59,830 nt of DNA from an uncultured Deinococcales bacterium (GTDB taxonomy: Bacteria; Deinococcota; Deinococci; Deinococcales; JAAFIG01): positions 1 to 59,830 of the forward strand of contig CAXTKV010000003.1 of NCBI GenBank assembly GCA_964244895.1. The letters are read 5' to 3'. Shown here one piece after another: positions 29,925-56,119 of the stretch. The translations under genes and the position numbers were made by a program. How positions within the stretch are numbered: the stretch's first letter is position 1; the number at the start of each line of letters is the position of its first letter. Below the pieces are notes generated by a model that ran no database searches, was not told the origin of the DNA, and was given only the letters and a program-made list of their open reading frames with translations.

Positions 29925-30162
29925 GGGTGGTCGCGGGTCAGTCGTCAGGGGTCAGAGGAAAACCCGGTTGCTTCGGTTCTCGCCTCGACCTTGACACTCG
30001 AGAACACCGTGCTGGACAGTCTTTTGTGGGTTGAAGCTCAACGTTTGGCTTTCAGAGCGGCCCGAGCCGTTCCTCGAGATGCGCGCTTCAACCCGCCCGA
30101 CCTCTGACTTCTGACCCGTGAGGGCTTTTCCCGGCATAGAATGGCTCGCACCACCACCCCTT

Positions 30163-38650: not shown

Positions 38651-38821
38651 GGCAAAATACCTCGAGAAAAAGAGCAAAAGACCTTGCGGTCAAAGCCATT
38701 GTAGGACCTTCAAAAAATGGTCGCGGTGTTGGTCAACATCGAGTTGACCTCAACAAGACATCATCCAGGACGCAAAAAAAGAACACCGTCCAGCACGGTG
38801 TTCTCGAGGCATAACAAGAAT

Positions 38822-40084
38822 TTACTTCGTGCCGATCAACTCGAGCGCGCGCTCGAGCACCAGGTCGCGACCCGTGGCGGCCAGCACGTCCAGGTCATCC
38901 TTGACGATCACGTCGGGCGTGACGCGTTCGGGCAGGGGCGTGCCATCCCGGTGCAGGGACTTGCCGAGCGTCAGGGCCATGGCGCTGCCGTCGCGCAGGT
39001 CGTACTGGGTGGTGACAGTGTTGCCCAGCCCGCCGGTGACTTCTCCGACGACCAGGCCGCGTTTGCCATCCTGGATGGCCTGCGCGAAGTATTCCGCGCC
39101 GGAATACGAGTTCGCGTTGACCAGCACGATGACTTTGCCTTTCCACAAGGCCGCGCCGGGAACCGGGTAGATCTGCCCGATGGGCACGCCGGTCGAATCC
39201 GCCACGAACACGGCGTTGTCCTTCCAGACGCGCGCGGTCGTGCTCTGGCGGGTCTGGACGACGTAAGAAACGTCGCGCACGAAGGCTCCGGCGCTAGCGA
39301 TGAATTCCACGTCGATACCGCCGGGGTTGTCGCGCGCGTCCACGATGATGGCGCGCAGGTTTTGCTGTTGGGCTTTTCTGACCAGGTTGTGAACGGTCGG
39401 CGCGATCCCGCCGTACACGTCGAAGCTGGGAATCCGCAACAGCCCGATGCCGCCCGGCAGGGCGCGCATGGACGGCAGGCGCACCTTCAAAGGTTCGGGG
39501 CGCAGCGTCACCTCGAAGGCCCTGGGGCCGCGCTGAATGCCGAGCTTGTACGGTTGGCCGAGCGCGTTGGCCTTGGCGATGGCGGGTTGCAACCCTTCCG
39601 GGAAGCTGGTCGAAGGCTGAGAATTCAACGACACCAGGCGGTCGCCGCGTTGCACGCCCGCGCGCGAGGCGGGGCTGTCCTCAACAACATCGGTCACCAG
39701 GCGGTCGGTGGAATCCTTGATGGTGGTCGTGATCACGCCGATGCGGGGCGTGGCCGGGCCATCGCCGTTGCGCGACTGGCTGGCTTCGTCGCGATCCTGT
39801 TTTGAGAGAAAGTACGTGTGACCGTCGGAGAGTTCCTCGATCATCTTCTGAATCACGGGCACGGCGGCGTTGTACGGGCACTTCTGAAGCATGTCCTTGC
39901 AGGCCGAATCGATTTCGGGCTGGTATTTGGCGCTGAAATTTTCAAAATCCGCGCTCGAGTATCCGTTGTAGTAGAACGCGATGTAGTACACGGCCTGGTT
40001 AAAGAGATCCTGGGCTGGGCTGGCGAGCGCGCTCGAGAAGCCGATCAGGGCGGTGGCGATGGCGCTCAGTAGAATTTTTTTCAT
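38822..40084 (-). CDS. S41 family peptidase with PDZ domain, paralog 1
   Basis: Start MKKILL at 40084 (ATGA overlap); DGHT, DARDNPGG, SYSGAE, GEVTGGLG. Confidence 0.85.
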   Translation of the reverse strand: MKKILLSAIATALIGFSSALASPAQDLFNQAVYYIAFYYNGYSSADFENFSAKYQPEIDSACKDMLQKCPYNAAVPVIQKMIEELSDGHTYFLSKQDRDEASQSRNGDGPATPRIGVITTTIKDSTDRLVTDVVEDSPASRAGVQRGDRLVSLNSQPSTSFPEGLQPAIAKANALGQPYKLGIQRGPRAFEVTLRPEPLKVRLPSMRALPGGIGLLRIPSFDVYGGIAPTVHNLVRKAQQQNLRAIIVDARDNPGGIDVEFIASAGAFVRDVSYVVQTRQSTTARVWKDNAVFVADSTGVPIGQIYPVPGAALWKGKVIVLVNANSYSGAEYFAQAIQDGKRGLVVGEVTGGLGNTVTTQYDLRDGSAMALTLGKSLHRDGTPLPERVTPDVIVKDDLDVLAATGRDLVLERALELIGTK

Positions 40085-41370
40085 TGGTTCACCGTGTCCA
40101 GCGCGCGCTCGAAAACCTCGTCGCGGCCCGTCTTGATGAAGCCATCGAAGTCGTCGCGCACGAACGTATCCGGCGTGACGCGCTCCGGGTAGGGCGTGCC
40201 GTCGAGCCGGGAAGCCTTCGTGACCGTCACGTACAAGCCTCCGCCGTTGATCAGGTTGAAGCCCCTGGCGCTGGTGTTGCCCAACCCGAACGTGCGTTCC
40301 CCGACGACGCTGCCGCGCTTGGCGAATTGCACGTCGGCGGCGAAGACCTCGGCGCACGAGGCGCTGTCGTGGTTGACCAGCACGGCCAGTTTGCCCTGCC
40401 ACTTGGCGGGCTGCTCGATCTGGTAGGAATCGAGCGCCTCTTTCTGATCGACCTTCGAGAACAGCACGCCGTCGCGGTAGCCCTCGAGCCGGCGTTCGTA
40501 ACGCGATTCGCGCACGCGCACCACGTCCGGCACGAACGCGCTGACACCGGCCAGGCATTCGGTGGCGAAACCGCCGGGGTTGTCGCGCAAATCCACGATA
40601 ATGGCTTTGACGTTCAGCGTCTGCGCGCGGCGCACCAGGGCGTGCAGCTTCTGCGCGACGCGCTGGAAAGTATCGAAGTCCGGCACCACGATCCGTGCGA
40701 TGTTGCCCGCCGAGGTCGGCACGACGTTCATCCACGGCAGGTTGGAAAACTCGAAGCGCCTCGAGATGACGGTCATCTCGAGGCGTTCAGCCGTGCCGCG
40801 CAGCAGGCTCAGGCGCACCGGGCGGCCCGAACCGTCAATCTGCACGAAGGTCTGCCGGGCCTCGTTGCTGTCGCGCGAGAGCGCCTGACCGTTCATGGCC
40901 ACGATCCGATCGCCGCGCCGCAATCCGGCTTCCTCGGCGGAGCCGCCCTCCAGGACTTCAGCCACGCGAATATCGGTTTCGCCCTGCGCGAAAACGGGTG
41001 CGGCCACGAAACCCATGCTGACCTTGGAATCCAATCCGATGTCGCCGGAAGCGCGCGCGCCCTGATCGTCTTGTTCATCGGCGGACACCAGGTAGGTGTG
41101 CTGGTCGCCGACTTCCTCGAGCATGGCTTCGATGACCTTCGAGGCGACCTCGTAGCCGCAGGCTTCGCCCTTGCCCTGGCAGGCCGTCTCGAGGCGCTTC
41201 TGGTACTTCGTCTCGAAGGCGGGTGCATCCAGTCGGCTGAAGCCGTTGTAGTAAAACGTCAGGTAGTACAACGCCTGATCGAACAGATCCTGGGCTGGGC
41301 TGGCGAGGGCGCTCGAGCAGGAAAGCGCGATCACGGCGAGGGTGACACGAAAAGCGCGAGGTCTGTTCAC
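40081..41370 (-). CDS. S41 family peptidase with PDZ domain, paralog 2
   Basis: DQHT, DLRDNPGG, SASCAE, GERTFGLG; start uncertain. Confidence 0.85.
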   Translation of the reverse strand: MNRPRAFRVTLAVIALSCSSALASPAQDLFDQALYYLTFYYNGFSRLDAPAFETKYQKRLETACQGKGEACGYEVASKVIEAMLEEVGDQHTYLVSADEQDDQGARASGDIGLDSKVSMGFVAAPVFAQGETDIRVAEVLEGGSAEEAGLRRGDRIVAMNGQALSRDSNEARQTFVQIDGSGRPVRLSLLRGTAERLEMTVISRRFEFSNLPWMNVVPTSAGNIARIVVPDFDTFQRVAQKLHALVRRAQTLNVKAIIVDLRDNPGGFATECLAGVSAFVPDVVRVRESRYERRLEGYRDGVLFSKVDQKEALDSYQIEQPAKWQGKLAVLVNHDSASCAEVFAADVQFAKRGSVVGERTFGLGNTSARGFNLINGGGLYVTVTKASRLDGTPYPERVTPDTFVRDDFDGFIKTGRDEVFERALDTVNQ

Positions 41371-41731
41371 TCCCTCAGAATAGCGGAACTCGATGAACGC
41401 GAGTGTAAAAACTGGCACCGACGCCGATGGTCAGAATGCACCGTCCCAGACGCGGTTTTTGCGCGCGGGAATACTGCGTCTGGGACGGTGTTCCAAGCAT
41501 TGAGTCTCGGGTGCGCACGAAAGTATCTCGAGTCGGGGCGCGAACTTCCTGCGAAGCCCGAGCTCGTCGAGCCATCCTCAAATTCCCGGCCTGTTCGCCC
41601 CCGAGATGATGCCGCGAGATCGCGATATCCGCCCGAGGCTCGCGCCAGATTTTTCAGTAGATTCAGCGAGCCCGTTCAAAACGCTGCTCGAGACCCAAAG
41701 GAGTCTCGATCAGCGGCACGGTTCGTCGGGA

Positions 41732-43051
41732 TTACGAGGCTTTGAGCGTCTCGAGGGCTTTGTCCAGAACCAGGTCGCGCCCGGTGTCGAACAAGGTGAA
41801 CGCGCCATCTGCAACCACAACGTCCGGTGTGACCTGCGCAGGCAAGGGCGTTCCGCTCGCCCAGATCGTGCGCAAGGTCGGCATCAGGGCTGCACCACCG
41901 TTGATCAGACTGAACGTGCCCCGGTTGGTGTTGCCCACGCCGACGGTCGGTTCACCCAGCACCGGCGCGCGTTTGGCGTGTTGAATACCGCTCGTGACGT
42001 ACTCGCAGGCCGAAGCGCAACCGCTGTCCACCAGCACCGCCAACGGCCCCGTCCAGAGCGCCGGGTTCGGCACGACTTCGGTGCCGCGCTCGTTGCCTTT
42101 CAGATCCCTGGAAATCCAGCGGCCATCCTTGAAGAGTTCCTCGGTGGTCAAGAGATCAGCGTTGTAACGCGGTACGCGGCGGATCGGTTCGGCGTTCTGC
42201 ACGAACGCGCCCAGGGTTTCGCGTTCCTCGTTGGAAAAACCGCCACCGTTGCCGCGCATGTCGAGCACGATGGCTTTGGCGTTCTTGGCTTGGGCTTCGT
42301 GAACCAGTTCGTGAACCCGAATGCCGATACCTTTTTGGAAGAAGGTCGTGACGCGCAGGGTCGCGACGCCATCCGCCGCAATCGTCATCGTGGGCAATTC
42401 CTTCAGGCTGACCAGTTCACCCTTTATGGGAATCTCGAGCTTCTGGCGATCAGCGCCGCGCACGATCGACATCGTGACGGTTTCACTCGCCCTGATCTTC
42501 TGCCCGAAGGTCTGCAAGAAATCCGTGAACGCTTTGTCGTCCTTGAAGCTCGAGAAGGCCGTGCCGTTGAAGCCCGTCCAACGATCCCCGAACCGCAAAC
42601 CCGCTTTTTCGGCGGGGCTGCCCGGCAGGACGTTCAGGATCATGCGGTCGTAACTCAGAAATTTGCCGTCCTTGTCGGTGAAACCCCGGTGGGTCACGCC
42701 GATGCGCGGCGTGGGCGATTGGCCGCCGCTGGCGCTGGCGTTTTCAGCCAGCACCTCTGATGGGCTTTCGTAGCCCGCGTGCGCATCCTGAAGTTCCTCG
42801 AACAGGCTGCTGAGCGCTGGTTCGATCTTCTCGAAGGCGCAGGTGTCCTTCGCGTCCGCGCAGACCTGATCGACTTGCGCCTGGTATTTGGTGATCAGGG
42901 CTTTGATGTCTCCGGTGTACGGCCCGAAGTACTGCGTCTCGAGGTAAAAGGTCGCCTGGTCGTACAAGTCCTGGGCGGGGCTGGCCAGCGCAACTGAGAA
43001 TCCGATCACCAGCGTGGCGGTCAATGCGCGAATCCATCGGGGAGCATTCAT
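41732..43051 (-). CDS. S41 family peptidase with PDZ domain, paralog 3
   Basis: DAHAG, DMRGNGGG, CASACE, GEPTVGVG; TATCTT 6 nt upstream of ATG. Confidence 0.85.
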   Translation of the reverse strand: MNAPRWIRALTATLVIGFSVALASPAQDLYDQATFYLETQYFGPYTGDIKALITKYQAQVDQVCADAKDTCAFEKIEPALSSLFEELQDAHAGYESPSEVLAENASASGGQSPTPRIGVTHRGFTDKDGKFLSYDRMILNVLPGSPAEKAGLRFGDRWTGFNGTAFSSFKDDKAFTDFLQTFGQKIRASETVTMSIVRGADRQKLEIPIKGELVSLKELPTMTIAADGVATLRVTTFFQKGIGIRVHELVHEAQAKNAKAIVLDMRGNGGGFSNEERETLGAFVQNAEPIRRVPRYNADLLTTEELFKDGRWISRDLKGNERGTEVVPNPALWTGPLAVLVDSGCASACEYVTSGIQHAKRAPVLGEPTVGVGNTNRGTFSLINGGAALMPTLRTIWASGTPLPAQVTPDVVVADGAFTLFDTGRDLVLDKALETLKAS

Positions 43052-43252
43052 GGCATCAAGATAACGACATTTCGCCATGAGAAAAGGTGATCTAAACCGT
43101 GCTGGAACCCGTCTCATGCGGCTCACAGACGCGTTTCGTGGGGTCTGGGCTGGCTGAACGCCCGAGATTCAGCTCGTCCTGAACACCCGAGATTCCGTAA
43201 TGAAAACCCGAGACCCAATCCTGCGGGTCTCGAGCATCCGATACGGCCTGAT

Positions 43253-44650
43253 TTACTTGATGTTCAACGCTTCGAGCGCCTTGTCGATCATCGTGTCGCG
43301 TCCCGTCTGAAACAGCTGGAACGTGACATCCGGAATCTCGATGTCGGGCTTGATCGAGGTCGGCAGGGACGTGCCATCCGTCCAGAACGACCGCACCGTC
43401 GGCATGCCCGCCGCGCCACCGTTGATCAGACCGATCCGGGCGGTGTTCGTGTTGCCGACCCCGGCGGTCTCCTCACCGAGCAGCGGACCGCGTTTGGAGC
43501 GCTGAAGGTACGCGGACGTGATCTCGCAGGCTGAGGCGCAACCGCCGTCGATCAGCGTGGCGAGCGGCCCTTTCCAGATCGTCGGGTTCTGAATGGGTGT
43601 CCCGGCGGACTCCTGACCTGCGGCGTTGCGCTGCACGAACTTGCCGTCGCGGAAGAGTTCCTCGACGTAGTTGGTGGTGGCGTTGTAGCGCGGGGTTCGG
43701 CGCAGGGGCTCGGGGTTTTCGATCAGTGCCCCCACGACCGGGTTGCGTTCCGTGTTCAGACCGCCGGGGTTGCCGCGCATGTCCAGGATCAGCGCCTTGA
43801 CGCCTTTGGCTTGCGCGTCGCGGATCAGGTCGTGGGTTTTCTGACCCGTGCCGCCGCTGCTGAAGGTCGGGATGCGCAGCACACCGACGCCGTTGGGCAG
43901 CACCCTGAGGGTCGGCAGGTTGAGCAAGTTGACGATCTCGCCCTTGACTTGCAGGTCAATGCGCTGACGGTCGGCGCCGCGCACGATCATCATCTTGACG
44001 GTTTCACCGCTCTGGACGCGCTTGGTGAAATCCGCGAAGAAGGCCACGAGTTCTGCGACATCGGTGATGCTCGAGAACAGCTTGTCGTTGGCTCCGATCC
44101 AGCGGTCGCCGACCTGAAGACCAGCGCGTTCGCCGGGGCTGTTCGGGTAGACGGCGCGCACCAGACGGTCATTGGAGATCAGTTTGGCCTTGCCGCTCTT
44201 GATCGCGTCCTGGACTTCTGGCGTGAAGGCGCTGAATTCGACGGGTTTGCCGTCAATTTCCAGGAAGCTGGTGTGCTGAAAGCCGATCAGGGGTTTGGGC
44301 GATGGGGCTGCCGCGCCCGAAAAATCGGCCTGTTCCTGGCGCACGTTTTCGGCTGTCAGGTAGTACGTGTGGCCATCCTGAAAGGCATCGAAGAGTTCCG
44401 CGATGACCGGTTCGACCTTCTCGTAGGCGCAGGTGTCCTTTTCGCTGGCGCAAGCCTTGTCGACCTCAAGCTGGTACTTGTCGATCAACGCTTTGATGTC
44501 GCCGGTGAACGGGCCGTAGTAGACCGTCTCGAGGTAAAAGGTCGCCTGGTCGTACAAGTCCTGGGCTGGGCTGGCCAGGGCGCTGGAAAAACCGATGGCG
44601 GCCAGCGCACCGATGGCGATGAACGTCTTGAGTCTCGAGAGGCCGATCAC
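43253..44650 (-). CDS. S41 family peptidase with PDZ domain, paralog 4
   Basis: DGHT, DMRGNPGG, CASACE, GEETAGVG. Confidence 0.85.
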   Translation of the reverse strand: MIGLSRLKTFIAIGALAAIGFSSALASPAQDLYDQATFYLETVYYGPFTGDIKALIDKYQLEVDKACASEKDTCAYEKVEPVIAELFDAFQDGHTYYLTAENVRQEQADFSGAAAPSPKPLIGFQHTSFLEIDGKPVEFSAFTPEVQDAIKSGKAKLISNDRLVRAVYPNSPGERAGLQVGDRWIGANDKLFSSITDVAELVAFFADFTKRVQSGETVKMMIVRGADRQRIDLQVKGEIVNLLNLPTLRVLPNGVGVLRIPTFSSGGTGQKTHDLIRDAQAKGVKALILDMRGNPGGLNTERNPVVGALIENPEPLRRTPRYNATTNYVEELFRDGKFVQRNAAGQESAGTPIQNPTIWKGPLATLIDGGCASACEITSAYLQRSKRGPLLGEETAGVGNTNTARIGLINGGAAGMPTVRSFWTDGTSLPTSIKPDIEIPDVTFQLFQTGRDTMIDKALEALNIK

Positions 44651-44651
44651 C

Positions 44652-45911
44652 TTACTTCACCCCCAGAAGGTCGATGGCCTTGAGCAAGGCAGCGTCCGTT
44701 CCTGCTACCAGCGCGGTCGCATCTTCGGGTACAGCCACGTCCGGCGCGACTTGCATCGGCCAGGGCGTGCCATCTGGGTTCAGAATCCGGTCGGTCGAGA
44801 CGTTGATGAAGTTTCCGTCGATCATTTCGGTGTCGCCGATGCTGACATCCAGGCTCGGCAACCCACCCGAGACGCCCAACTGCCCGGAGCTGGGTTCACC
44901 CACGACCTGGGCGCGCTTGGCGCGTTGCAGCAAGTAGGCCAGCATCTCGCCGTTGTGGGTGGTGTACTTGTTGACCAGCACGGTCACTTGGCCTTTCCAG
45001 GTCTGGAAAGCGCCGCCCTCGAATTGCGCGATGGGCAGGTTGCGGTTCTGCACCTGCTGGGCGATGGCGTTGCCCTGGAGAATGAAGTTGCGTTGACCGC
45101 CCTGGAAACGGTTCTTGTACGAAAACCCGATCTGGTCGGTGAAAGCCCTGGCCGCGAAGATCGATTCGGAATCGAAGCCCCACTCGTCGTCGCGCAAGTC
45201 CAGCACGATGCCCTTGTAGCTGTTGTTGTTGGCCTTGCGCACCAGCTGATGAATTTTCCGGGCGACCTCGCCAGCCCAGTAGTAATCGCTGATGTGAATT
45301 ACCATCACGCCCTTGGGCGCACCGTCCACCTCGGCGGGTTTCTGGCCTTCGTCGGCCACGGTAGCGGTCAGGTTGACGACCTGCGACGCACCCTTGCGCG
45401 AGACCTCGAGCGCGATCGCTTTGGCATTGAGTTCAGCCGCCATCAGGGCTTCCAGGCTGGCGGGTTTGCCGTCGATGGTTTTGATCAGGTCGCCGCGCTG
45501 CAGTTTGCCATCGGCGGGTTCACCGAGCATCACGCGCGCCACCAGCAGACCAGCCGGGGTGGCCCGGGTGAGGGCACCGATGCGCGGGCTGGAAGGCCCC
45601 TGGCCACCGGACAGCCGGTCGAAATCGTTGTTGATGATCTTGACGAACGGATCGCCGACGTTCTTGATGATTTCCTGGACGATCGGGATGGCTTTCTGGT
45701 AGGCGCAGTTGGCGTCTCCGGCGCAGGCCGCGTCGAGCTTGGCCTGGTACTGCTTGCGAAGGTCGCGGTAGTTGGCGACCTTGGCGGGGCCGGAGTAATA
45801 AAAACCGACGTAGAAGGTCGCCTGATTAAACAAGTCTTGCGCGGGGCTCGCCAGGGTGGGAGCCGCCCCGATGGCGGCGATGGCGATTGCAGCGATGATG
45901 GTTCTTCGCAT
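44652..45911 (-). CDS. S41 family pseudo-peptidase, paralog 5 (catalytic residues replaced)
   Basis: DPFV instead of DxH, DLRDDEWG instead of DxRxNPGG, TTHNGE instead of xxSxxE; AAGGAG RBS. Confidence 0.75.
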   Translation of the reverse strand: MRRTIIAAIAIAAIGAAPTLASPAQDLFNQATFYVGFYYSGPAKVANYRDLRKQYQAKLDAACAGDANCAYQKAIPIVQEIIKNVGDPFVKIINNDFDRLSGGQGPSSPRIGALTRATPAGLLVARVMLGEPADGKLQRGDLIKTIDGKPASLEALMAAELNAKAIALEVSRKGASQVVNLTATVADEGQKPAEVDGAPKGVMVIHISDYYWAGEVARKIHQLVRKANNNSYKGIVLDLRDDEWGFDSESIFAARAFTDQIGFSYKNRFQGGQRNFILQGNAIAQQVQNRNLPIAQFEGGAFQTWKGQVTVLVNKYTTHNGEMLAYLLQRAKRAQVVGEPSSGQLGVSGGLPSLDVSIGDTEMIDGNFINVSTDRILNPDGTPWPMQVAPDVAVPEDATALVAGTDAALLKAIDLLGVK

Positions 45912-46241
45912 TCGTTCTCCTTTGCGTGTTCAAGTTCGCCCTACGATAACGCCGGTCAACGAGAGGACTGTGAAAAAACGTCGCAATCGCCCCTCGGAAG
46001 CTCGCCCAGATCCCACCGTGGGCGGTCGGCTGCCAGGTATTTCAGTCGCTCGGGGTGTTCGTTCTCGAGAAGATCGTTCAGAACAGTCTTTTTATAACCA
46101 GAGATTTCGCGTGTGGGACGGTCTTCTCGGGTTCAGGCGCACGGTCTGAGCGCTTTAGGAGGCGATGCGGGGTTCTCGAGCCCACCCGTCGGATGCGGCT
46201 CATGCGAACGCCCTCTGACCCACACCATCCGGGTGACGGAT

Positions 46242-47615
46242 TCAAAAGTGCGCGAACCTGGGGATCTCCTCGCGCTGATGGGATCGGGGCTCGAGGCGGC
46301 TCAGGTTGCGGTTGCCGAGCGCGCGGACGGCGGTCTCGAGCACCAGGTCGCGTCCGGCGGCCAACGCGGCCAGGTCATCTCGGAGGCTCACGTCGGGCGC
46401 GACGCGCTCCGGAAAGGGCGCACCGGAAAGATCCAGGCTGCGGCCCAGACTGACCGCCATGGCGCTGCCGTCCGGCAGGGAGAACAGGCTGTTGGAGGTG
46501 TTGAGCGCCCCGAGCGTCGGCTCACCGAAGACCCTGGCGCGCCCAGCGTGTTGCAGCAGGTACGCCAGGTACTCCGGGGCGCTCTTGGCGACGGCGTTCG
46601 TCAGGATCGCCAGCGGCCCCGTCCAGCGTGCGACCTGCGGCACGACCCCGAATTCGGCCCGCCGACCCTGCGGATCGACCTGCACGAAACGTCCATCCTT
46701 GTATTCAAACAGGTAGCGTCCATCCCTGAATTCGTCCAGCAAGGCTGGGTGATCCATGAATGCGCCCGCCGCGCCCATCATCTCGGAGATCAGCCCGCCC
46801 GCGCTGTCGCGCACGTCCAGGATCAGGCCCCTGGCGTTGGCCTCGATCGCCTGCGCCACCAGCGCGTGAACCCGGCTGGCGACGCCACCGTTGGCCTTGA
46901 ACTGCGAGAGCGCGATGACTGCGATCCCATCGCTTCTCAGCTCGAGCTGCGGCGGCCAGGGTTGCAGCGGCACGGGCGAGATCTCGAGGGTCGAGGCGGA
47001 TTTTCCCGCGCGCCGCACCTGAAAGCGCATCGCTTCCGCCTCGCGCTCCGAGCGGTTGATCGCCTCGAGCGCCGCCTTAAAGGATGCAAACTGTCCGAGC
47101 GGCACGTCGCCCAGCGCCAGGATCGTGTCGCCGCGCCGCACGCCCGCGCGGTAGGCCGGGCCATTTTCCAGAACGCGTTTGACGACCAGCGCGCCCGCGT
47201 CCGGCAGGGCCGCCAACATCATCCCGAAGGACGCATCTTTTGAAACCAGGTTGCTGAAATCCCGGTTGACGGTGATCGACTGATCCGCCAGCAGCCGATA
47301 CGTGTGCGGGTCGTTCAGGCTCGAGACCATGTCCGAGACGATCTGCGAAGCCGCATCGAAGGGGCATTCGGAGCGTCCGGCGCAGATCGTCTCGAGGCGC
47401 GGCAGGAAGCGCGAGCGCAACGCGAGCGCATCGAGCTTCGAATAGCCGTAATAGTTCGTCTGAAGCGTCGTCAGCACCCGGTCGAACAACGATTCGGCGG
47501 GGCTCGGTTGCGTCTGCGAGAGCGCGAACGGCGAACCGAGCGCCACGATCACGACCAGACGCGCAAGACGCACGATCACCACCAGACGCGCCAGACGGGC
47601 GATGAAGGATTTCAT
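46242..47615 (-). CDS. S41 family peptidase with PDZ domain, paralog 6
   Basis: DPHT, DVRDSAGG, AKSAPE, GEPTLGAL. Confidence 0.83.
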   Translation of the reverse strand: MKSFIARLARLVVIVRLARLVVIVALGSPFALSQTQPSPAESLFDRVLTTLQTNYYGYSKLDALALRSRFLPRLETICAGRSECPFDAASQIVSDMVSSLNDPHTYRLLADQSITVNRDFSNLVSKDASFGMMLAALPDAGALVVKRVLENGPAYRAGVRRGDTILALGDVPLGQFASFKAALEAINRSEREAEAMRFQVRRAGKSASTLEISPVPLQPWPPQLELRSDGIAVIALSQFKANGGVASRVHALVAQAIEANARGLILDVRDSAGGLISEMMGAAGAFMDHPALLDEFRDGRYLFEYKDGRFVQVDPQGRRAEFGVVPQVARWTGPLAILTNAVAKSAPEYLAYLLQHAGRARVFGEPTLGALNTSNSLFSLPDGSAMAVSLGRSLDLSGAPFPERVAPDVSLRDDLAALAAGRDLVLETAVRALGNRNLSRLEPRSHQREEIPRFAHF

Positions 47616-47813
47616 CCTTGACAGTCTACCGATTCGGCAGCCCGTGTGCCTGAACGCACCGCACGAGATCCGCAGCCGCGCCCAACCGGGTTCAATTCAG
47701 GAAAGACCGTTCGGAACGGTCTTTCCTGAAATCAAAAACTGCGTGCCAGACGGTGTTTTTGTTGTATAGAGCCCGAAGAACGAGGCTCGAGACAGCGTTT
47801 GATACCGCCCGCC

Positions 47814-48401
47814 TCAGCCGCCCTGCACCAAAAACGCGTGCAGCAGATCGAAGGCCAGCAAAAACGCGCCCTGAACGATCACCGCCGCGCCGGAACCGCG
47901 CCAGGTGTCCTCCGGGCGCGACAGCAAGTACAGGCCGCCAGCCACGTACAGCACGTCCGCGCCCGCGTTGATCAAGAGCGTCGTCCTCAAGCCCGCCGGA
48001 TCGGGTTCCGAACCCAGCAAACCCGCGTACGCGATCCCGGTGTTGATCAAACCCCAGGCCGCGCTCATGCCCCAGAAGCCCTTCCAGTAGGCCTCGTTCG
48101 ATGCCCACAGACCGACAATGCCGACCCCGATCCACGGCAGCGACCAGGTCATCAAACGCAAACTGATCGATTGCCCCGCGTAACCCGGCGTCAACGGCCC
48201 GAACAAGAGCGTCAACGCGCCCGGTTTCTCGAGCGTCAGGCTCTGGCTTCTGGAAGTTTCCAGCACGGTCGGAACCGCGATCAGCGCAGGTGAAAATCCG
48301 AGCGCACCAGATGCGCTGAAGGCCGCCTCGAGGGTCTGCGCACCCGCGCTGGGAAACGCCAGGAACGATGCCAGGGCCACCACCAGCGCGCGGTATCTCA
48401 T
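47814..48401 (-). CDS. DUF6992-like membrane protein
   Basis: LLINAGADVLYVAGGLYL...GSGAAVIVQGAFLLAFD; TAGACT 7 nt upstream of ATG 48401. Confidence 0.55.
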   Translation of the reverse strand: MRYRALVVALASFLAFPSAGAQTLEAAFSASGALGFSPALIAVPTVLETSRSQSLTLEKPGALTLLFGPLTPGYAGQSISLRLMTWSLPWIGVGIVGLWASNEAYWKGFWGMSAAWGLINTGIAYAGLLGSEPDPAGLRTTLLINAGADVLYVAGGLYLLSRPEDTWRGSGAAVIVQGAFLLAFDLLHAFLVQGG

Positions 48402-48538
48402 GCGCTCGAGTCTAAGCCGCCCAGAACGCACAGCCTCGCATCAGGGCACACTGTTCCTCGAGACGACCCGTTTGTCACCCATTGCGACGCTCAGGGTCTT
48501 TCGCCGTTGAGCGGCTTGGAAGATCGACTGAGTAACGG

Positions 48539-48575
48539 CGAGGGATTCTTCGTCGCACCTCCTCAGAATGACGAC
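48539..48575 (-). repeat. GTCATTCTGAG...GAAGAATC-type intergenic repeat, copy 1
   Basis: Reverse complement closely matches 58649-58685. Confidence 0.55.
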
Positions 48576-48622
48576 AAGATGTAGCTCGCGCAGTCTCTCA
48601 GTGCGCAATCTCGCGCAGCCTC

Positions 48623-49882
48623 TCAGTGCGCAATCTCGCGCAACGCCGCCTCCAGCACCGCGTCCCGACCCATCGCGAGGGCGCTCAGGTCATCGCGCAC
48701 GGCCACGTCGGGCGTGATCGCGGCGGGGTGGGGCGCGCCATCCGGCGTGAACGATCGGGCGGAAGTCACGGCCAGCACGGACCCGTCCGGCAGGTTCGTC
48801 AAGGACGTGGCCGTGTTCAGCACGCCCGCCGTGGCTTCCCCGAAGACGCGGGCGCGTTTGGCGCGCTGAAGAAAGAAGGTCATGTATTCGGCGGCGCTGC
48901 GGGCCGTACCGTTGGTCAGTACCGCAAGCGGCCCGTCCCAGCGCGCCGGATCGTTGACCACGCGCGTGGTTTCGGGGCGTCCGGGAAAGGAAACGATGCC
49001 CGCGTTGTACTCGAGGCTGTACTCGCCGTTGCGGGATTGCACGCGCACCCCGAGCGGTTCGGTGAACGCGCCAGCCGCACCCAGGGCTTCGTCGGCCAGA
49101 CCGCCGCCGCTGTGCCGCACGTCCAGGATGATCGCTTTGGCGTCGGCGGTTTTTGCCTGACGCACCAGGTCGTGGACGCGGTTGGCGATTTGCTTGCCGG
49201 TGCGGAACTGGTAGGTCGTGATGATGCCAATTTTGCCGATGCTGGCATCGCGGAGTTCCAGGGTCGGCAACCACGGGCCGCGCAGGTGCGGCATCAGCTT
49301 CACTTCCCTGCGCGCGCCACCTCGGCTCGAGACGCTCAGGCTCAGGGTCGCCGCCTCGAGTTCCTGGGCCTGAATGGCTTCGATGGCGCTGGCCGGGTTG
49401 CCGAATTGCTCGAGCGATTGAGCGTTCAGCGCCCAGACGGTATCGCCGCGCCGCACGCCCGCGTTCCAGCCCGGTTCGCCTTCCAGGGCGCGCGTCACGA
49501 TCAGCGCGGGCGCGTCCGGCAGGGGCGCGAACTTCAAACCCAGGCTGGGCAGTGATGCGCCCGCGAAATCCGCGTCGGAAAGCTTGCGCGCCACGGGCGT
49601 CAATCTGAACGTGTGCCCATCCCCGACGGCGGCGGTCAGTTCGTCGATGACGCGTTCACCGATCTCGAAGCCGCACGGTTTGGCGGTGGCGCACAGTTCG
49701 TTCAGGCGGGCGTTGAACCTGGCGTAGAGCGCGTTCGCGTCCAATGGTTCGTAGCCGAAGTAGGTGGATTCGATCTGGCCGAAGGCCGTTTCAAACAGGT
49801 CTCGCGCCGGGCCGTTCGATTGCGCGACCACCGCGCCGGAAAGCACGCCCGCGATCAAGGCCGCGTGAAGGATGTAACGCAT
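48623..49882 (-). CDS. S41 family peptidase with PDZ domain, paralog 7
   Basis: DGHT, DVRHSGGG, ARSAAE, GEATAGVL. Confidence 0.83.
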   Translation of the reverse strand: MRYILHAALIAGVLSGAVVAQSNGPARDLFETAFGQIESTYFGYEPLDANALYARFNARLNELCATAKPCGFEIGERVIDELTAAVGDGHTFRLTPVARKLSDADFAGASLPSLGLKFAPLPDAPALIVTRALEGEPGWNAGVRRGDTVWALNAQSLEQFGNPASAIEAIQAQELEAATLSLSVSSRGGARREVKLMPHLRGPWLPTLELRDASIGKIGIITTYQFRTGKQIANRVHDLVRQAKTADAKAIILDVRHSGGGLADEALGAAGAFTEPLGVRVQSRNGEYSLEYNAGIVSFPGRPETTRVVNDPARWDGPLAVLTNGTARSAAEYMTFFLQRAKRARVFGEATAGVLNTATSLTNLPDGSVLAVTSARSFTPDGAPHPAAITPDVAVRDDLSALAMGRDAVLEAALREIAH

Positions 49883-50019: not shown

Positions 50020-50832
50020 TCACGCGCTGGAACGCTTGCGCTTGAGCTTCAATGGCGGCGGCAAGTCCAGACCCCAGGATTGGATCATCTCCGGCGCGAC
50101 GCCCCAACTGAGCAGGTCGCGCAGATCGTCCGCGCCCAGGCCAGCGCTCGCCAGCACGTCCGGTCGGCGCTCGAGCGTGCGCCTCAGGGCTTGCTGGCGA
50201 CGCCAGCGCGCGACCGCCGCGTGGTTGCCGCCTTTCAGCACGTCCGGCACCGCCATCTCGTTCCAGACGGGCGGGCGGGTGTACTCCGGGTAATCCAGCA
50301 GCCCGCTCGAGCCGGAACCATCGGATAAACCGCTCGAGAAGCTGTCCGCGCGGTGAGAATCCTCGTCATTCAGCACGCCGGGAATCAGGCGGCTGACGGC
50401 TTCTATGACGCACACGGCGGCGGCTTCGCCGCCCATCATCACGAAATCGCCCAGGCTGATTTCTTTCGTGACCAACGATTCGGCGCGCGCGTCGAAGCCC
50501 TCGTAGCGACCGCACAGGAGCGCCACGTGGGGTTTCTTGGAAAGCTCCAGCGCGAGCGCCTGCGTGAATGGCGTCCCGGCGGGCGTCAGCATCACGACCT
50601 CACTGGCGTTCACGCCTTCGAGCGCGCGCGCGATCACGTCCACCCGCAAGACCATGCCCGCGCCGCCACCGTAAGGTGAATCGTCCACGGTGCGGTGCCT
50701 GTCGGTGGTGACGCTGCGGATGTCGCGCAGGTCGAATTCCAGCAAGCCGTTTTGCACGCCCCTGGCGATGATGGCTTCTCGAGTCCAGGGTTCCACCAGT
50801 TGCGGGAACAGCGTCAGCACCGTGAATTTCAC
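50020..50832 (-). CDS. trmD: tRNA (guanine-N1)-methyltransferase
   Basis: [10 protein letters not shown] start (GTG 50832), [42 protein letters not shown]. Confidence 0.95.
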
Positions 50833-51077
50833 GAAAGAAGCATATCTCGAGCGGTGCGAGCCCCGAGAACACCGTCCAGTACACGAGTTTAAGAATGCGT
50901 GCAGGACGGTGCTTCTAGAATCTCGAGGTGAAAGGCCGCCGCTCGAATATCGTGATGCCCGAGTCTTTCGTGATTGCCAATACGGGTCGCCCGAGACCAA
51001 CCCGCCGTATCCGACACGCAAGGCTCGAGACGAAACGAGGTCGAGGAATTCCATCCTCGACCTCGAGCGGTGCGGCT

Positions 51078-52373
51078 TTAAGGAGCCGTCGTGAACGACG
51101 TGGTGTTGGAACGGTACGTCAGGATCGGCGTGGTCGAGTTGATTAAGACCAATTCGATGTTGGCACCGACCGGGTCGGTCAGCGCGTTCGGTGGGAATGA
51201 CGCGTTCTGAAACGAACTGATTCCCCAGTTGTACGTGGCTGAAGCAGCCAACGTCCCGCCCAGAGCGGTGTAATCGGGCAGCGTCAGGGAAGTCAGGTTA
51301 CCGGGAAGGAACATCCTGATGTTCACGCCTGGGCCGCTCAAGGTGAAGAAGTACAGGTCTGCTCCGGTAACTGGTGACCAGGTGAAGGTCGGCAGTTTAC
51401 TGACGCCCGTCGAGCCATCGCTCGGCAGGCTGTTCTTGAGCACCACGGTCGAGGGGAAGGTCACGTTCGTCACGCCACCGCTGACGCCCGGCACGTAGTA
51501 CGCCACACGGTTGTTCGAGGCATCCCTGGCACCGACGCCGAACAGGCTACCTTCGGTCGGCACGCTGACGCTCGTACCGCTGGCGAGATTGCCGCTGCTG
51601 GGCGTGAACGACGCACCGTTGACCCTGACGGCCAACAGTTGCGCGCTTGGCGATGTCGTGTACGCCCCGAGGGTGTAATTGAAGGTGGTCGTACCGGAAG
51701 GAACGGTCGTATCCAGAGGGATGTTCAAACCGGATTGCCCGATCGTGCTCTGCAAGGTCACGCCAGCGCGCTTGCCCGTCTGAAGGTAAGCAAGTGTGGG
51801 CACCGTTCCTGATGTCCGCAGCGCCACCAGATCGGTGGTCTTGGTCGGCCCTCCGCCCCAACTGATGCTGCCCGTGTACGCCCCGGTGGTCGTGTTGCCG
51901 GAGATGCTGCCGAGCGCACCACCGTTGGCCGATACCATCAGGGTATCTCCGGCGGGCAGCGGGAAGGTCGGCCCGGTGATGTTCCCCGAGGCCGTGGTGC
52001 CATACACCGCTCCGGCGCTGCCGCTCGAGTCAATCTGCGGGTCGGCGCGGCTCAGACCACGGTATTCGACGATGGTCGATCCCGTTTTGGCGGTCAGCGT
52101 GTACGGCGTCGTGACGTTCGAGAAGCCGAATTGACCGCTCGCACCCGTCGTCGCGGGCGTGCCCGCGTTGTTCAACTGGACGCTGACGCCGGAAACCGGT
52201 GCGCCCGAACTGGTCACGACCGTTCCGGCCACGGTGATGGTCGCGGGCGGTGGCGGTGGTGCGGGCGGGCCGGGAGGCGGCGGAGGTGGTGGTGTCGGTG
52301 TGGGCGTCGGGCAGGCGGTCAGCACAGCAGCGCTCACCAGGGCCAGAAGACTGAACTTCCACAAGTTCATCAA
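51078..52373 (-). CDS. Pro-linker lipoprotein with carboxypeptidase-regulatory-like domain, paralog A
   Basis: Lipobox VLTAC, poly-Pro linker, [14 protein letters not shown], Ser/Thr/Gly-rich beta domains. Confidence 0.75.
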
Positions 52374-52552
52374 GACAACCTCCTCGAGCTGAAAGTGTTC
52401 AAGTCACAGTGTAGATCAAAGTCGAAACGCGGGGCTCGTGGGGTATCTCGAGCGAGAACACCGTCCTGCGCGCATTCTCAAGTTCGCGTGCAGGACGGTG
52501 TTCTTTGAAGGCTCGAGAAAAAGACGGTGCGATCTCAAGCTTCAGTCAGGTC

Positions 52553-53851
52553 TCAAGGGGCAGTCGTGAAGGTCGTGCTGGCGGAACCGAAGGCTTTGAT
52601 CGGCGTCGTGGAACCGTAAACGGTGAGGAGGATGTTTCCACTCGTCGGATCGGTGAGCGCATTCGGAACGAAGTTGGTATTTTGAATCGACGTGACCCTC
52701 AAGGTATACGCGGTGGAACCGGCCAATGGTGCACCGAGAGCGGTGTAGTCCGGCAAGGTCAAGCTGTTGACGTTGCCCGGCAAGAAGACCGTGTACTCCG
52801 TCGGGCCGCTCAAACCCACGACGTACAGATCCGCACCGGCCACCGGCGACCAGCTCAGCGTGGGGAGCTTGCTGACGCCTGTTGAACCATTGCTTGGAAG
52901 GCTGTTTTTCAAGGCGATCGTGGTTGGGAACGCGACGCTCGTGACGCCAGCTGCGACACCCGGCAGATACCATTCAGCTCGGTTTCCGGAACCATCTTGC
53001 CCTGTCACGGAGAAGAGGCTGCCTTCGTTCGGCACGCTGACCGCCGTTCCGCTGGCGATCGAACCGCCACCAAGCAGAAAAGTGGCGCTGTTGACCCGCA
53101 CCGAAAGCAAGGAAGCGCTCGAAGAAGACGTGTATGCACCCAGCGTGTAATTGAGCGTGGTGGAACCGGACGGAACCGCCGTGTCGAGCGGGATGTTCAG
53201 GCCAGTCTGCCCGATCCCTTTCGTCAGGGTGACGCCCGCCCGTTTGCCGGTCTGAAGGAACGAAAGCGTGGGCGAGGATCCCGATACGCGCAGTGCGACC
53301 AGGTCGGTGGTCTTGGTCGTGCTGCCGCCCCAGATCATGTTTCCCGTGTAGGCGGCGGTGGTGGTATTCGCATTGATCCCGCTCAGCGCACCGTTCGTCC
53401 CGGAGACAACCACGGCGTTTCCTGCGGGCAACGGGAAGGTTGGGCCGGTGATCGTACCCGCGATCGAGGCGGTACTCGTGATGCCGCCGAAACCGTTGCT
53501 CGAGAGCAGCGGGTCAGCGCGGGTCAGACCCCGGTATTCGACGATCGCGGCGGGGCTGGTGAACTTGGCGGTCAGCGTGTACGGCGTCGTCACATTGGAG
53601 AAATTGAACTTGCCCTGAACGTCCGTGGTGGCTGGCGTTCCAGCGTTGTTGAGTTGCACGCTGATCGCGGAAACTGGAGCGCCGGAGCTGTCGAGCACCG
53701 TTCCGGCCACATTAATGGTCGCGGGCGGTGGCGGTGGTGCGGGCGGGCCGGGAGGCGGCGGAGGTGGTGGTGTCGGTGTGGGCGTCGGGCAGGCGGTCAG
53801 CACAGCAGCGCTCACCAGGGCCAGAAGACTGAACTTCCACAGGTTCTTCAA
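52553..53851 (-). CDS. Pro-linker lipoprotein, paralog B
   Basis: Same architecture; shared [32 protein letters not shown]. Confidence 0.75.
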   Translation of the reverse strand: MKNLWKFSLLALVSAAVLTACPTPTPTPPPPPPPGPPAPPPPPATINVAGTVLDSSGAPVSAISVQLNNAGTPATTDVQGKFNFSNVTTPYTLTAKFTSPAAIVEYRGLTRADPLLSSNGFGGITSTASIAGTITGPTFPLPAGNAVVVSGTNGALSGINANTTTAAYTGNMIWGGSTTKTTDLVALRVSGSSPTLSFLQTGKRAGVTLTKGIGQTGLNIPLDTAVPSGSTTLNYTLGAYTSSSSASLLSVRVNSATFLLGGGSIASGTAVSVPNEGSLFSVTGQDGSGNRAEWYLPGVAAGVTSVAFPTTIALKNSLPSNGSTGVSKLPTLSWSPVAGADLYVVGLSGPTEYTVFLPGNVNSLTLPDYTALGAPLAGSTAYTLRVTSIQNTNFVPNALTDPTSGNILLTVYGSTTPIKAFGSASTTFTTAP

Positions 53852-53952
53852 GACAACCTCCTCGAGCTAAAAGTGTTCACGTCACAGTTTAAGCCATAAA
53901 CTGAAAAGAATGAACTTGATCAGTCGTATCTCGAGCGTGCATCAGTCAAACG

Positions 53953-53983
53953 CGAGGTCGGGAGTCTCGTACTCCCGACCTCG
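53953..53983. terminator. Hairpin downstream of paralog C
   Basis: CGAGGTCGGGAGT-ctcgt-ACTCCCGACCTCG. Confidence 0.55.
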
Positions 53984-54000
53984 AGCGCAAGCGTTTGAGT

Positions 54001-55302
54001 TTAAGGAGCGGTCGTGAAGTTGGTGTTGCCCGAATTGAAAGCCGTGATCGCGGTCGGCGTGGTAAAGTACGTCAGGAACAAGCTGCCGCCCGCCGGGTCG
54101 GTCAGGATGTCCGAAGACCCGAGGTTGGCCGCCTGGAACGACGAGACGTTCCAGTTGTACGCCGTGCTACCGACCAGGGCCGCCCCGATACCCGCGTAAT
54201 CGGGCAGCGTCAAGTTGCTGCTGCTAGCGGGCAAGTAAATTCTGTACTGGATGGATGGCCCATTCAGGGTCAGGGAGTACATGTTCGCGCCGGACACGGG
54301 CGACCAGTTAAAGGCGGGGCGCTTGTTGACGTTGGTAGCGGTGTTGCTGGGCAGGCTGTTCTTGAGCACCACCGTGGCTGGCAAGCTGACGTTCGTGGAA
54401 CCACCGACCACACCGGGCAAGATGACGGTCGCACCGTTGCCGGAACCATCGTCACCCGTGACGGCGAAGACGCTGCCCTCGTTGGGCACGTTGAAGCTCG
54501 TACCGCTGGCGAACGACCCACCGAGCCCGAGCAGGAACGGTGCGCCGTTGACGCGGACGTTCAACAAGAACGAGTTGGGCGTGGTGGTGTACGCACCGAG
54601 CGTGTAGGACAGGGTGGTCGTTCCAGACGCGACCGCCGTGTCGAGCGGAATGTTCAGACCGGACTGTCCAATACCCTTGGCCAGCGTGACACCCGCGCGC
54701 TTGCCCGTCTGCAGGTACGTCAGGGTGGGCAACGACCCCGAGGTGCGCAGCGCGACCAGGTCGGTGGTCTTGTTCGGCCCGCCCGTCCAGACGGCTGAGC
54801 CGGTGTAATTGCCGTTGGTGGTGTTGCCGGACATCAGGCTGAATGCGCCGTTGGTGGCGGAAATCACCAGGCTGTTGCCTGCGGGCAGCGGGTAGGTCGG
54901 GCCGGTCACGGTGCCAGCAATGTTGGCGGAGTACCCGATCGAACCGAAGCCGGTGGTCGCAATCTGCGGGTTGGTGCGCGTCAAGCCTCGGTACTCGACG
55001 ACGTAGGTGGTGCCACCGCTCACGGATTTGGCGGTCAGCGTGTACGGCGTCGTGACGCTCGGGAAGCTGAACTGACCCTGCACGTCGGTCGTGGCTGGCG
55101 TACCGGCGTTGTTCAACTGGACGCTGACGCCGGACACGGGTGCCCCTGAACCGTCCACGATGGTACCGGCCACGGTGATGGTCGCGGGCGGTGGCGGCGG
55201 CGCGGGCGGGCCGGGAGGCGGGCTGGGCGGGGTGGGTGAAGGACAAGCGACCAGAGCGACGGTGCTGATCAGCGCGGCGAGACCCAGCTTCCAGTGATTC
55301 AT
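54001..55302 (-). CDS. Pro-linker lipoprotein, paralog C
   Basis: AGGAGG RBS before ATG 55302; lipobox ALVAC; same motifs as A and B. Confidence 0.75.
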   Translation of the reverse strand: MNHWKLGLAALISTVALVACPSPTPPSPPPGPPAPPPPPATITVAGTIVDGSGAPVSGVSVQLNNAGTPATTDVQGQFSFPSVTTPYTLTAKSVSGGTTYVVEYRGLTRTNPQIATTGFGSIGYSANIAGTVTGPTYPLPAGNSLVISATNGAFSLMSGNTTNGNYTGSAVWTGGPNKTTDLVALRTSGSLPTLTYLQTGKRAGVTLAKGIGQSGLNIPLDTAVASGTTTLSYTLGAYTTTPNSFLLNVRVNGAPFLLGLGGSFASGTSFNVPNEGSVFAVTGDDGSGNGATVILPGVVGGSTNVSLPATVVLKNSLPSNTATNVNKRPAFNWSPVSGANMYSLTLNGPSIQYRIYLPASSSNLTLPDYAGIGAALVGSTAYNWNVSSFQAANLGSSDILTDPAGGSLFLTYFTTPTAITAFNSGNTNFTTAP

Positions 55303-55627
55303 GCGACTACCTCCTGAATAACGTTGATTCATGACGGTCTATTCGACGATTGAGAAAAGAGTTGAATCGATGCGATCGGCTGCCTCCTGAACGGGATGAG
55401 TAGGTGTTCTGCAAGGTTCTGAGTGGAGGGCAAAGATTCCTGGTGGCGTCTGCGTGGCGCTTTTTCCCGCGCCCTCAAGGTATCCAAGGCAGGCTGAAAG
55501 CGCCCTGAGAGGCTTTCACGGCCCTGGCCAGCGCCTCTCGAGACAGCAAGAACACCGTCCCGAACGCACTTCTGGCGTTGCGTCCGGGACGGTATGGTTG
55601 GTTGGGGTTGAATCTCGAGCTGAAGCT

Positions 55628-56119
55628 TTAAGCCTCGAACAAGCCGGGAATCGGTTCAATCTCGAGGTGATCCGCCAGGACGCGCACGTAAGGCGCTTGC
55701 AACGGCACGAGCGCGTCGCGCCCATCGTGTTCGATCACCAGGATGTCGTGCGCCCCGGAATCGATCACGTCGCGCACGCGTCCCAGATCCTGACCGCCCG
55801 GTGCGCGCACCGGCAGTCCGATCAGGTCGTGATAGTAGTACGTGCCCGCCTCGAGCTCGAGTTCCGCTTTTTCCGCGCGCAATTCCAGGTCGCGTAGACC
55901 TTCGGCGGCATCCACGGTGATGATCCCCGCCAACTTCAGCACCAGAATGTTGCGGTTGTGAAGGCGGATGTTCTTGACGCGCATCCAGCCGTGGTTCTGC
56001 AGGTGAACGCGTTGCAAGCCCAGCAGCGCCTCCGGTTGCCCGATGGGTTGCAGCCTCACGCTTCCATCGAGCCCCTGCGGAGCGACGATTCTGCCAATCA
56101 GGATCAGGTGTTCAGTCAC
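55628..56119 (-). CDS. rimM: Ribosome maturation factor RimM
   Basis: IGRIVAPQGLDG, YYYHDLIG, GAHDIL, PGLF; downstream of rpsP. Confidence 0.92.
   Translation of the reverse strand: MTEHLILIGRIVAPQGLDGSVRLQPIGQPEALLGLQRVHLQNHGWMRVKNIRLHNRNILVLKLAGIITVDAAEGLRDLELRAEKAELELEAGTYYYHDLIGLPVRAPGGQDLGRVRDVIDSGAHDILVIEHDGRDALVPLQAPYVRVLADHLEIEPIPGLFEA

Follow-up and report, generated by a model that had tools for sequence, protein, structure and literature searches.

The locus described here raises a simple question: with which residues would a run of exported S41 peptidases cleave their substrates when the lysine of the CtpA active site is missing from every member? The run occupies positions 38822-49882 of a 59,830-nucleotide stretch from an uncultured Deinococcales bacterium (contig CAXTKV010000003.1; this whole stretch is hereafter the window), where an earlier note made from the sequence alone had pointed to seven paralogous genes. 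Open reading frames (ORFs), residues and codons were checked across these positions, and residue numbers refer to the gene at the low-coordinate end, g1. The reading that we consider probable, from sequence and structural models, is that six of the genes (g1-g4, g6 and g7) encode exported Ser-His PDZ-proteases produced by a lineage-specific expansion and that the remaining one, g5, is a catalytically dead subunit. The array itself is a family trait and not a new system: it belongs to a phylum-wide, uncharacterised S41 subfamily that is expanded in one family of the Deinococcales.

Seven S41 paralogs without the CtpA lysine

Seven co-oriented ORFs of 419-465 codons, all on the minus strand, span positions 38822-49882 exactly. 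Six encode putatively exported PDZ-S41 peptidases, namely g1 (38822-40084; 420 amino acids, with scores of 111 bits for Pfam S41 and 35.9 bits for PDZ_6), g2 (40081-41370), g3 (41732-43051), g4 (43253-44650, with a long insert ahead of the PDZ domain), g6 (46242-47615) and g7 (48623-49882). The seventh, g5 (44652-45911), is the S41 paralog predicted to be dead. All seven match Pfam Peptidase_S41 (PF03572) at 77-111 bits, over a cut-off of 24, and they align end to end. The shared order of features is a hydrophobic leader running to ALA or similar, a start of the SPAQDLF type, a cysteine pair, a D-x-H motif, the PDZ region, a D-x-R-x-N-x-G-G motif and the helix of the serine. All seven copies have the cysteine pair (C62/C69), the P-A..L of the SPAQDLF start and a glutamate three residues after the serine (Ser+3); the nucleophile itself is present in six, with histidine in its place in g5. 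These observations bear out the description in the earlier note, with two qualifications: the signal peptides were assigned by eye, from a hydrophobic stretch followed by ALA ahead of SPAQ, and a PDZ model scores above the Pfam cut-off in only four copies (g1, g2, g4 and g6). In g3, g5 and g7 the region aligns with the PDZ region of the other paralogs despite a sub-threshold score.

Pairwise identity ranges from 25 to 51% and is highest for g3/g4 (51%), g6/g7 (44%) and g1/g2 (40%). Paralogs so far diverged must be old, which argues against a duplication or artefact of the assembly. Averaged over pairs, the copies are least alike in the cap (identity 0.26) and the PDZ domain (0.27), compared with 0.35 in the core. 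This distribution suggests that the copies act on different protein or peptide substrates of the envelope or the extracellular space.

Published descriptions of Pseudomonas aeruginosa CtpA and of CtpB give the catalytic triads as Ser302-Lys327-Gln331 and Ser309-Lys334-Gln338, respectively, which places the lysine at Ser+25 and the glutamine four residues further on (Lys+4). In a HMMER alignment, Leu353 of g1 (codon 39026-39028) faces the catalytic lysine of P. aeruginosa CtpA. Read from g1 to g7, position Ser+25 is occupied by L, L, V, V, Q, A and V, within GLG, GLG, GVG, GVG, GQL, GAL and GVL; these are exactly the sequences that had been listed as replacing the lysine of GxxTxGKG. The glutamine at Lys+4 is missing as well, g1 having valine there. 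The same alignment found lysine in the Ser+25 column of the canonical S41 protein of the same genome (contig C40, C40:27666-29114, SASASE...GKG) and of all seven CtpA-type control loci, which came from a scan with a single protein and are distant, canonical Lys-type CtpAs of other phyla. Since the lysine was recovered in eight of eight canonical controls, its absence from the array is not an alignment error.

Profile scores point the same way. TIGR00225, the model for C-terminal processing peptidases, gives 57.7-108.5 bits for the array proteins against a cut-off of 218.6; the NCBIfam models for CtpA, CtpB, CtpC and CtpZ give at most 92 bits against cut-offs of 525-665, and every NCBIfam model for Ctp, Prc or CPAF stays far under its cut-off. 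The assignment of the array proteins as putatively exported PDZ-S41 proteins without the CtpA lysine is thus supported by their sequences.

A profile of the seven genes was searched against 1.84 billion cluster representatives (50% identity) and returned 1042 clusters at E<=1e-30; residue counts were made over the best 150 of these (E<=2e-61). At the position of the lysine the clusters have V (79), L (20), I (20), A (17), Q (5), G (4), E (2) or R (1), and K in a single case, an outlier of 812 amino acids. The position of the glutamine is occupied by A (46), S (37), G (24), T (15), V (12) or others. Both residues are therefore absent from all seven genes and from 149 of the 150 clusters. No column anywhere in the protein holds lysine in 85% or more of the clusters, the highest being K341 (55/150) in an AKR motif whose arginine, R342, is found in 97. 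Ser328 is kept in 140 clusters and His89 in 133, six of the remainder being N-terminally truncated fragments. Glu331 and Gly256 occur in all 150, the two glycines of the oxyanion motif in 142 and 150, and Asp407 in 148.

The members with names are entered as 'S41 family peptidase', 'carboxyl-terminal processing protease' or 'PDZ domain-containing protein' and come from Deinococcales metagenome-assembled genomes and from Calidithermus, Meiothermus, Truepera and Deinococcus. The databases thus already carry these genes under routine names, and the phylum guessed in the earlier note was correct. In one literature collection, none of the papers listed for S41 or carboxyl-terminal processing proteases in Deinococcus or Deinococcota deals with them.

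His89 as the candidate general base

A model of g1 was calculated with AlphaFold2 from a 145-row alignment, with 12 of the 150 representatives left out as fragments or outliers; the predicted local distance difference test (pLDDT) score is 96.6 and the predicted template modelling (pTM) score 0.92. His89 (codon 39818-39820) lies between the third N-terminal helix (residues 75-85) and the cap helix (95-105), and strands in the position of the PDZ domain occupy residues 117-194. Structural matches of this model, which cover it over its whole length, were obtained with VIA-align and comprise about 40 S41 entries at Z 15-28, isolated PDZ structures scoring about 13. One of the matches is the nisin-resistance protein NSR from Streptococcus agalactiae (PDB code: 4Y68; Z 23.4 with 4.6 Å root-mean-square deviation (rmsd) and 273 of 287 residues aligned). 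In the published account of NSR (PMC4698656), the catalytic His98 likewise sits after the third N-terminal helix and ahead of the cap helix, and the Ser236/His98 dyad is supported by Glu239 (Ser+3), Tyr261 (Ser+25), Thr263 and Asn265. The counterparts in g1 are Glu331, a hydrophobic residue at Ser+25 and then Asn355-Thr356.

Loss of the site in one group of relatives follows the same residues. All nine clusters with phenylalanine at position 89 are without Ser328, which is replaced by N in seven, H in one and W in one. The NSR-like position of His89, the lack of a conserved lysine and the concerted loss of Ser, His and Asn-Thr within the clade of g5 together point to His89 as the base. The canonical copy on contig C40 has phenylalanine at the D-x-H position. 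A phmmer search with the N-terminal 93 residues of g1 against PDB sequences gave no match at E<=10.

Several observations weigh against this assignment. P. aeruginosa CtpA, a Ser-Lys-Gln enzyme, has DPH aligned with the D-x-H motif, and histidine is found at this position in five of the seven Lys-type CtpAs from other phyla, the other two having tyrosine. The motif is thus present in true Ser/Lys enzymes and is not diagnostic. The co-loss is that of one clade, and so amounts essentially to one evolutionary event and not to nine. A glutamate at Ser+58, the spacing derived from the water-mediated His105-Ser499-Glu558 triad of CPAF, is not conserved in the array, where the residues are E, E, A, T, M, E and A. 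Pfam Tricorn_C1 was matched by none of 28 subfamily members at E<=10. Finally, a second histidine, His232, is conserved in 129 of the 150 clusters and is lost in five of the nine clusters of the dead clade. A Ser-His mechanism is plausible, not proven, and a His-based site is the best reading of the sequences and models. The earlier note had proposed such a site from the DxH motif; the proposal gains from the NSR-like position and the co-loss, and the motif itself falls away as an argument for it.

His232 is also the starting point of the alternative that survives best, which we nevertheless judge unlikely: the copies would be active serine peptidases with another base (His232, water or a carboxylate such as Asp407 or Asp391), and His89 would be structural, as it is in Lys-type CtpAs. 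His232 is specific to the subfamily, the canonical copy on C40 having glutamine there, and the near-invariance of Asp407 and the occurrence of D-x-H in Lys-type enzymes fit equally well. However, His232 sits in the first core helix (residues 227-240), and the dead copies in the fetched loci described below retain it in nine of ten cases, while His89 is lost in all ten. In NSR and CPAF, moreover, the catalytic histidine comes from the N-terminal segment. The aligned ranges place His105 of CPAF within about five residues of His89, an estimate from ranges and not at residue level; His746, the catalytic histidine of tricorn, falls at about the same distance by the same estimate. The catalytic histidine of tricorn also comes from the N-terminal segment.

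An ordinary Ser-Lys mechanism, as in C-terminal processing proteases, with a lysine reaching the site from elsewhere in the chain or from a partner subunit, appears improbable. The best sequence matches are indeed CtpA, D1P and CtpB (E 7e-22 with g1 alone and 3.5e-49 with the profile), domain order and fold are CtpA-like, and K or R is common in the AKR motif. Against this stand the absence of any widely conserved lysine column, the simultaneous absence of the glutamine and the low NCBIfam scores (58-109 bits for TIGR00225). It is more improbable still that all seven are non-catalytic S41-fold binding proteins like the modules of IRBP, whose chains are strong profile matches (9frx, 1.9e-48; Z 16-19) and whose case is helped by the tolerance of the fold for active-site loss in g5, since Ser328, the Gly-Gly motif and Glu331 are so widely kept and the loss of exactly these catalytic positions in a separate clade implies selection on them in the other copies.

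With His89 as the favoured base, the following scheme can be drawn for the live copies, which would be members of a tandem, lineage-specific expansion of a lysine-less S41 PDZ-protease subfamily widespread in Deinococcota. Each would be exported through a Sec-type signal peptide cleaved after ALA and would probably carry a C62-C69 disulfide. The predicted fold is that of CtpA or NSR, with three N-terminal helices, a cap helix, a PDZ domain and a ClpP-like core. Ser328 (codon 39101-39103 in g1) would act as nucleophile and His89 as general base in the manner of His98 of NSR, with Asn355 and Thr356 holding the histidine, Glu331 positioning the serine helix and Gly255-Gly256 forming the oxyanion hole. 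CtpB and CtpA have been described as having a PDZ-gated tunnel and as dimerising through terminal helices, and the PDZ domain of the array proteins may likewise bind substrate C-termini and gate the tunnel as in CtpB. Should the His-based site prove true, PDZ-gated S41 proteases would comprise two chemistries, Ser-Lys-Gln and Ser-His, with the latter dominant in Deinococcota. Cultured species of Meiothermus, Calidithermus and Deinococcus carry relatives of these genes, which makes ordinary genetics and biochemistry feasible.

A dead paralog next to a live copy

The exception within the array is g5; the earlier note had counted six copies with the serine and the DxH motif. The g5 protein reads T-T-H-N-G-E at the position of the serine (Ser to His, 44955-44957) and D-P-F at that of the histidine (His to Phe, 45645-45647), and Asn-Thr is replaced by Gly-Val; the cysteine pair and the fold are retained. 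A phylogeny was calculated with FastTree from 47 sequences over 427 columns and rooted on the canonical copy. The copies fall into orthologous clades common to several genera. The clade of g5 comprises ten copies, that of the window and a single one from each of nine related loci, two of which are from another family of the order.

All ten dead copies have phenylalanine for the histidine, histidine or asparagine for the serine and Val, Met or Ile for Thr356, and Asn355 is replaced in nine. They keep the cysteine pair, Asp87, Glu331 and Asp407. Among the other subfamily copies in the comparison, His, Ser and Thr are kept in 36 of 36 and Asn in 34 of 36. In family f3, five genomes were searched with the profile of the dead clade; the ten best matches were all of the live type, with no dead copy among them.

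A live copy in the same orientation follows each of the ten dead genes immediately downstream, with a spacing of -4 to +56 nucleotides (nt), values that are lower bounds because they were taken from the starts of the longest ORFs. In eight of the ten, the live partner falls within the g3/g4 clade or the sister group of that clade. Genomes of genus g13 are among those that carry the pair. In the window, g4 starts 1 nt past the stop codon of g5. Five g4-type matches in one genus had appeared to contain an internal TAA (G003:C35:94085-95437, G015:C181:27318-28670, G007:C175:9094-10443, G013:C93:4634-5983 and G009:C52:2524-3873). In the three loci of that genus that were fetched, the end of the dead gene and the start of the live gene share one frame with no gap, so that the TAA is the stop codon of the upstream gene and not the mark of a broken one.

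A model of the complex between g4 (residues 27-465) and g5 (22-419) gave interaction scores derived from predicted aligned errors (ipSAE) of 0.66, 0.70 and 0.68 (median 0.68), compared with 0.00 for the best of three controls; the mark applied to this score is passed by 116 of 157 solved complexes and by 2 of 215 mismatched pairs. At least 92% of the contacts are common to the runs, and the partner pLDDT is at least 89. The interface is formed by the mature N-terminal helices (g4 28-42, g5 23-37) and two core loops. Its location on the mature N-terminal helix would explain the conservation of the SPAQDLF start.

Two points bear on the specificity of this pairing. The result may reflect the likeness of the pair to solved CtpA and CtpB dimers, and the interface helix is conserved in every paralog. 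The model accordingly supports the formation of dimers in general, not a preference of g5 for g4.

On the sequence evidence, we regard g5 as a conserved, predicted pseudo-protease paired with a live copy, which is new here, had been missed in the earlier note and is the most interesting element of the array. The scheme outlined above would have it translated together with g4 and, as an inactive subunit, probably forming a dimer with a live copy by way of the conserved helix at the mature N-terminus, which bears the SPAQDLF motif. A more extended proposal is possible, and we hold it only tentatively, as it has somewhat less than an even chance: the array would consist of co-translated, heterodimeric S41 pairs in which a dead paralog, ancient enough to be shared by at least two Deinococcales families, binds the live one through this helix and has a regulatory or substrate-selecting role, with g2-g1 forming a live-live heterodimer. 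Mixed rings of ClpP and ClpR, in which an inactive paralog of a ClpP-type-fold protease assembles with active paralogs, offer an analogy and no closer relationship; they differ from the array in belonging to another family and in forming an ATPase-dependent ring of the cytoplasm or plastid. If the heterodimeric arrangement is real, it would be a ClpP/ClpR-like division of labour of a kind undescribed for S41/PDZ proteases. The conserved pair of dead and live genes in any event offers a simple example of a pseudo-protease partner in S41 that can be put to the test.

Distribution of the array in relatives

The genome of origin (328 contigs, 91% complete) contains 11 S41 genes, comprising the seven of the array, three further lysine-less copies with the same cysteine pair and histidine (C74:1427-2791, C251:3470-4798 and C221:3449-4888) and the canonical gene on C40. 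All 18 genomes sampled from the same family have 9-17 S41 matches at E<=1e-20, a number that includes the canonical copy and does not equate to a strict copy number; in the four remaining families of the order, a genome has 1-4 matches. About ten copies in one family point to a heavy investment in envelope or extracellular proteolysis.

Across the phylum, a match to the lysine-less subfamily (E<=1e-55) was found in 164 of 301 sampled genomes; five candidates were scored per genome, so copy numbers from this sample are lower bounds. By family, matches occur in 9 of 9 genomes (f1), 111 of 112 (f3), 29 of 62 (f5), 14 of 103 (f2) and 0 of 14 (f4).

Ten stretches from eight relatives were compared with the array. 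Three of them contain a run of five copies, three a run of four and one a run of three with one copy apart, and three loci have a pair without a third copy, so that tandem S41 runs recur and the array is not a one-off. A pair resembling g2 and g1 is present in four related loci, overlapping in three and separated by 174 nt in the fourth. The sole non-protease neighbour shared with related loci is a gene for a DUF6992 membrane protein (47814-48431, minus strand; 205 codons, Pfam PF22503, 85 bits), which stands within the array between g6 and g7. Sharing is confined to one sister genus, in which a 59%-identical gene (locus L013, 6687-7262) stands at the corresponding place, with a g6-like gene on one side and a g7-like gene on the other. 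No trmD homologue was found in the flanks of the ten related loci, and the adjacency of the array to trmD is therefore incidental. The earlier note had considered this adjacency unusual and the array the best candidate for an undescribed system. Both views are overstated, as Ser-His S41 enzymes are known (NSR, CPAF and tricorn) and the expansion is found in every genome sampled from the family.

Relation to characterised S41 proteases

The closest structural match to the g1 model is a putative S41 protein from B. fragilis (PDB code: 3K50; Z 27.7, rmsd 3.9 Å, 344 residues aligned). Two PDZ-less Bacteroidales S41 structures, 8VCB and 4L8K, follow at Z of about 21.7 with rmsd of 3.3-3.6 Å. These three entries are from a different phylum, are 18-21% identical and have titles that give no function.

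NSR (PMC4698656) shares with the array the glutamate at Ser+3, a residue other than lysine at Ser+25 and the polar residues next to it that hold the histidine. It differs in being PDZ-less and membrane-associated, in having nisin as a dedicated substrate and in its location in a resistance operon, and identity is only about 17%. The array has as neighbours trmD, the DUF6992 gene and a gene for a solute-binding protein, and no two-component or ABC resistance genes are seen. The presence of the PDZ domain and the lack of resistance-operon neighbours suggest NSR-like chemistry, not an NSR orthologue, and nothing found here links the array genes to action on lantibiotics.

CtpA, CtpB, Prc and D1P are the best matches by sequence and share the order of N-terminal helices, PDZ domain and core, with Z of 23-25 for CtpA and CtpB. 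Unlike the array proteins, they have lysine at Ser+25 and glutamine at Lys+4, and the array proteins fall below every NCBIfam Ctp cut-off. The canonical copy in the genome of origin shows neither the cysteine pair nor the SPAQDLF start of the array.

Tricorn (chain 681-1060; Z 13.3) and CPAF (Z 20.4) resemble the array in the proposed His-based chemistry and in a PDZ domain or PDZ-like insert, and differ in their propellers or extra domains, in Tricorn_C1 and in the glutamate at Ser+58. Membership of either group was considered and rejected. The best score against the CPAF model (NF033424) is 40.6 bits, far from the equivalog cut-off of 250. For the tricorn core protease (S41B), the array proteins have 419-465 amino acids and no beta-propellers or extra domains, and Tricorn_C1 is unmatched. 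Tricorn_C1 also has no match in the genome of origin, at the completeness given above. Neighbours in the ESM-Atlas that carry Tricorn_C1 were taken as a lead only; the Atlas also gave a lead towards Armatimonadota.

Expression signals and flanking genes

The ATG of g1 overlaps the stop codon of g2 as ATGA, and g2 is by this arrangement predicted to be translationally coupled to g1. For g2, 41370 was taken as the start on account of a signal-peptide-like N-terminus and a TATTCT at -12; the longest ORF begins at 41418. Comparable hexamers of the form TANNNT, a weak motif, stand 12-13 nt ahead of three other start codons on the minus strand, so that the set comprises g2 (TATTCT, -12, from 41382), g3 (TATCTT, -12, from 43063), g6 (TAGACT, -13, from 47628) and g7 (TAGACT, -12, from 49894). 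The sequence AAGGAG precedes the ATG of g5. A report on the phylum (PMC12340547) describes -10 boxes that adjoin ORFs and give leaderless mRNAs as common, and the hexamers at g2, g3, g6 and g7 would fit leaderless, -10-adjacent expression. A scan for sigma-70 promoters found no promoter-like site.

Two terminator-like hairpins on the minus strand were found by pattern match only, one with a 12-bp stem just past g4 (43206-43235) and one with an 11-bp stem and a T run just past g1, at the end of the array (38779-38805). The number of terminator-like sites in the region, 11, does not exceed that of shuffled sequences (mean 11.8). Taken together, the layout suggests transcription units g7, DUF6992, g6, g5-g4, g3 and g2-g1.

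Elsewhere in the window, an ORF at 30118-31359 (plus strand) encodes a 413-amino acid protein made up of KdpD N-terminal sensor and Usp domains only, the ORF containing no histidine-kinase domain. On the other side of the array, rimM (55628-56119) and trmD (50020-51054, minus strand), which are usually adjacent, are separated by three tandem paralogs at 51078-55332 (minus strand). These encode proteins of 431-443 amino acids that are 62-69% identical and have a lipoprotein-type leader (LTAC or LVAC), a long proline-rich linker, a CarboxypepD_reg domain and a conserved C-terminus that ends in FTTAP. The three genes have no homologues within the ten related loci, and no link to the array was found; that their products are substrates of the neighbouring PDZ-proteases is pure speculation. 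The longest ORF of trmD encodes 344 amino acids, and its match to tRNA_m1G_MT begins at residue 101. The true start of trmD is probably well downstream, which would lengthen the gap to the upstream lipoprotein gene.

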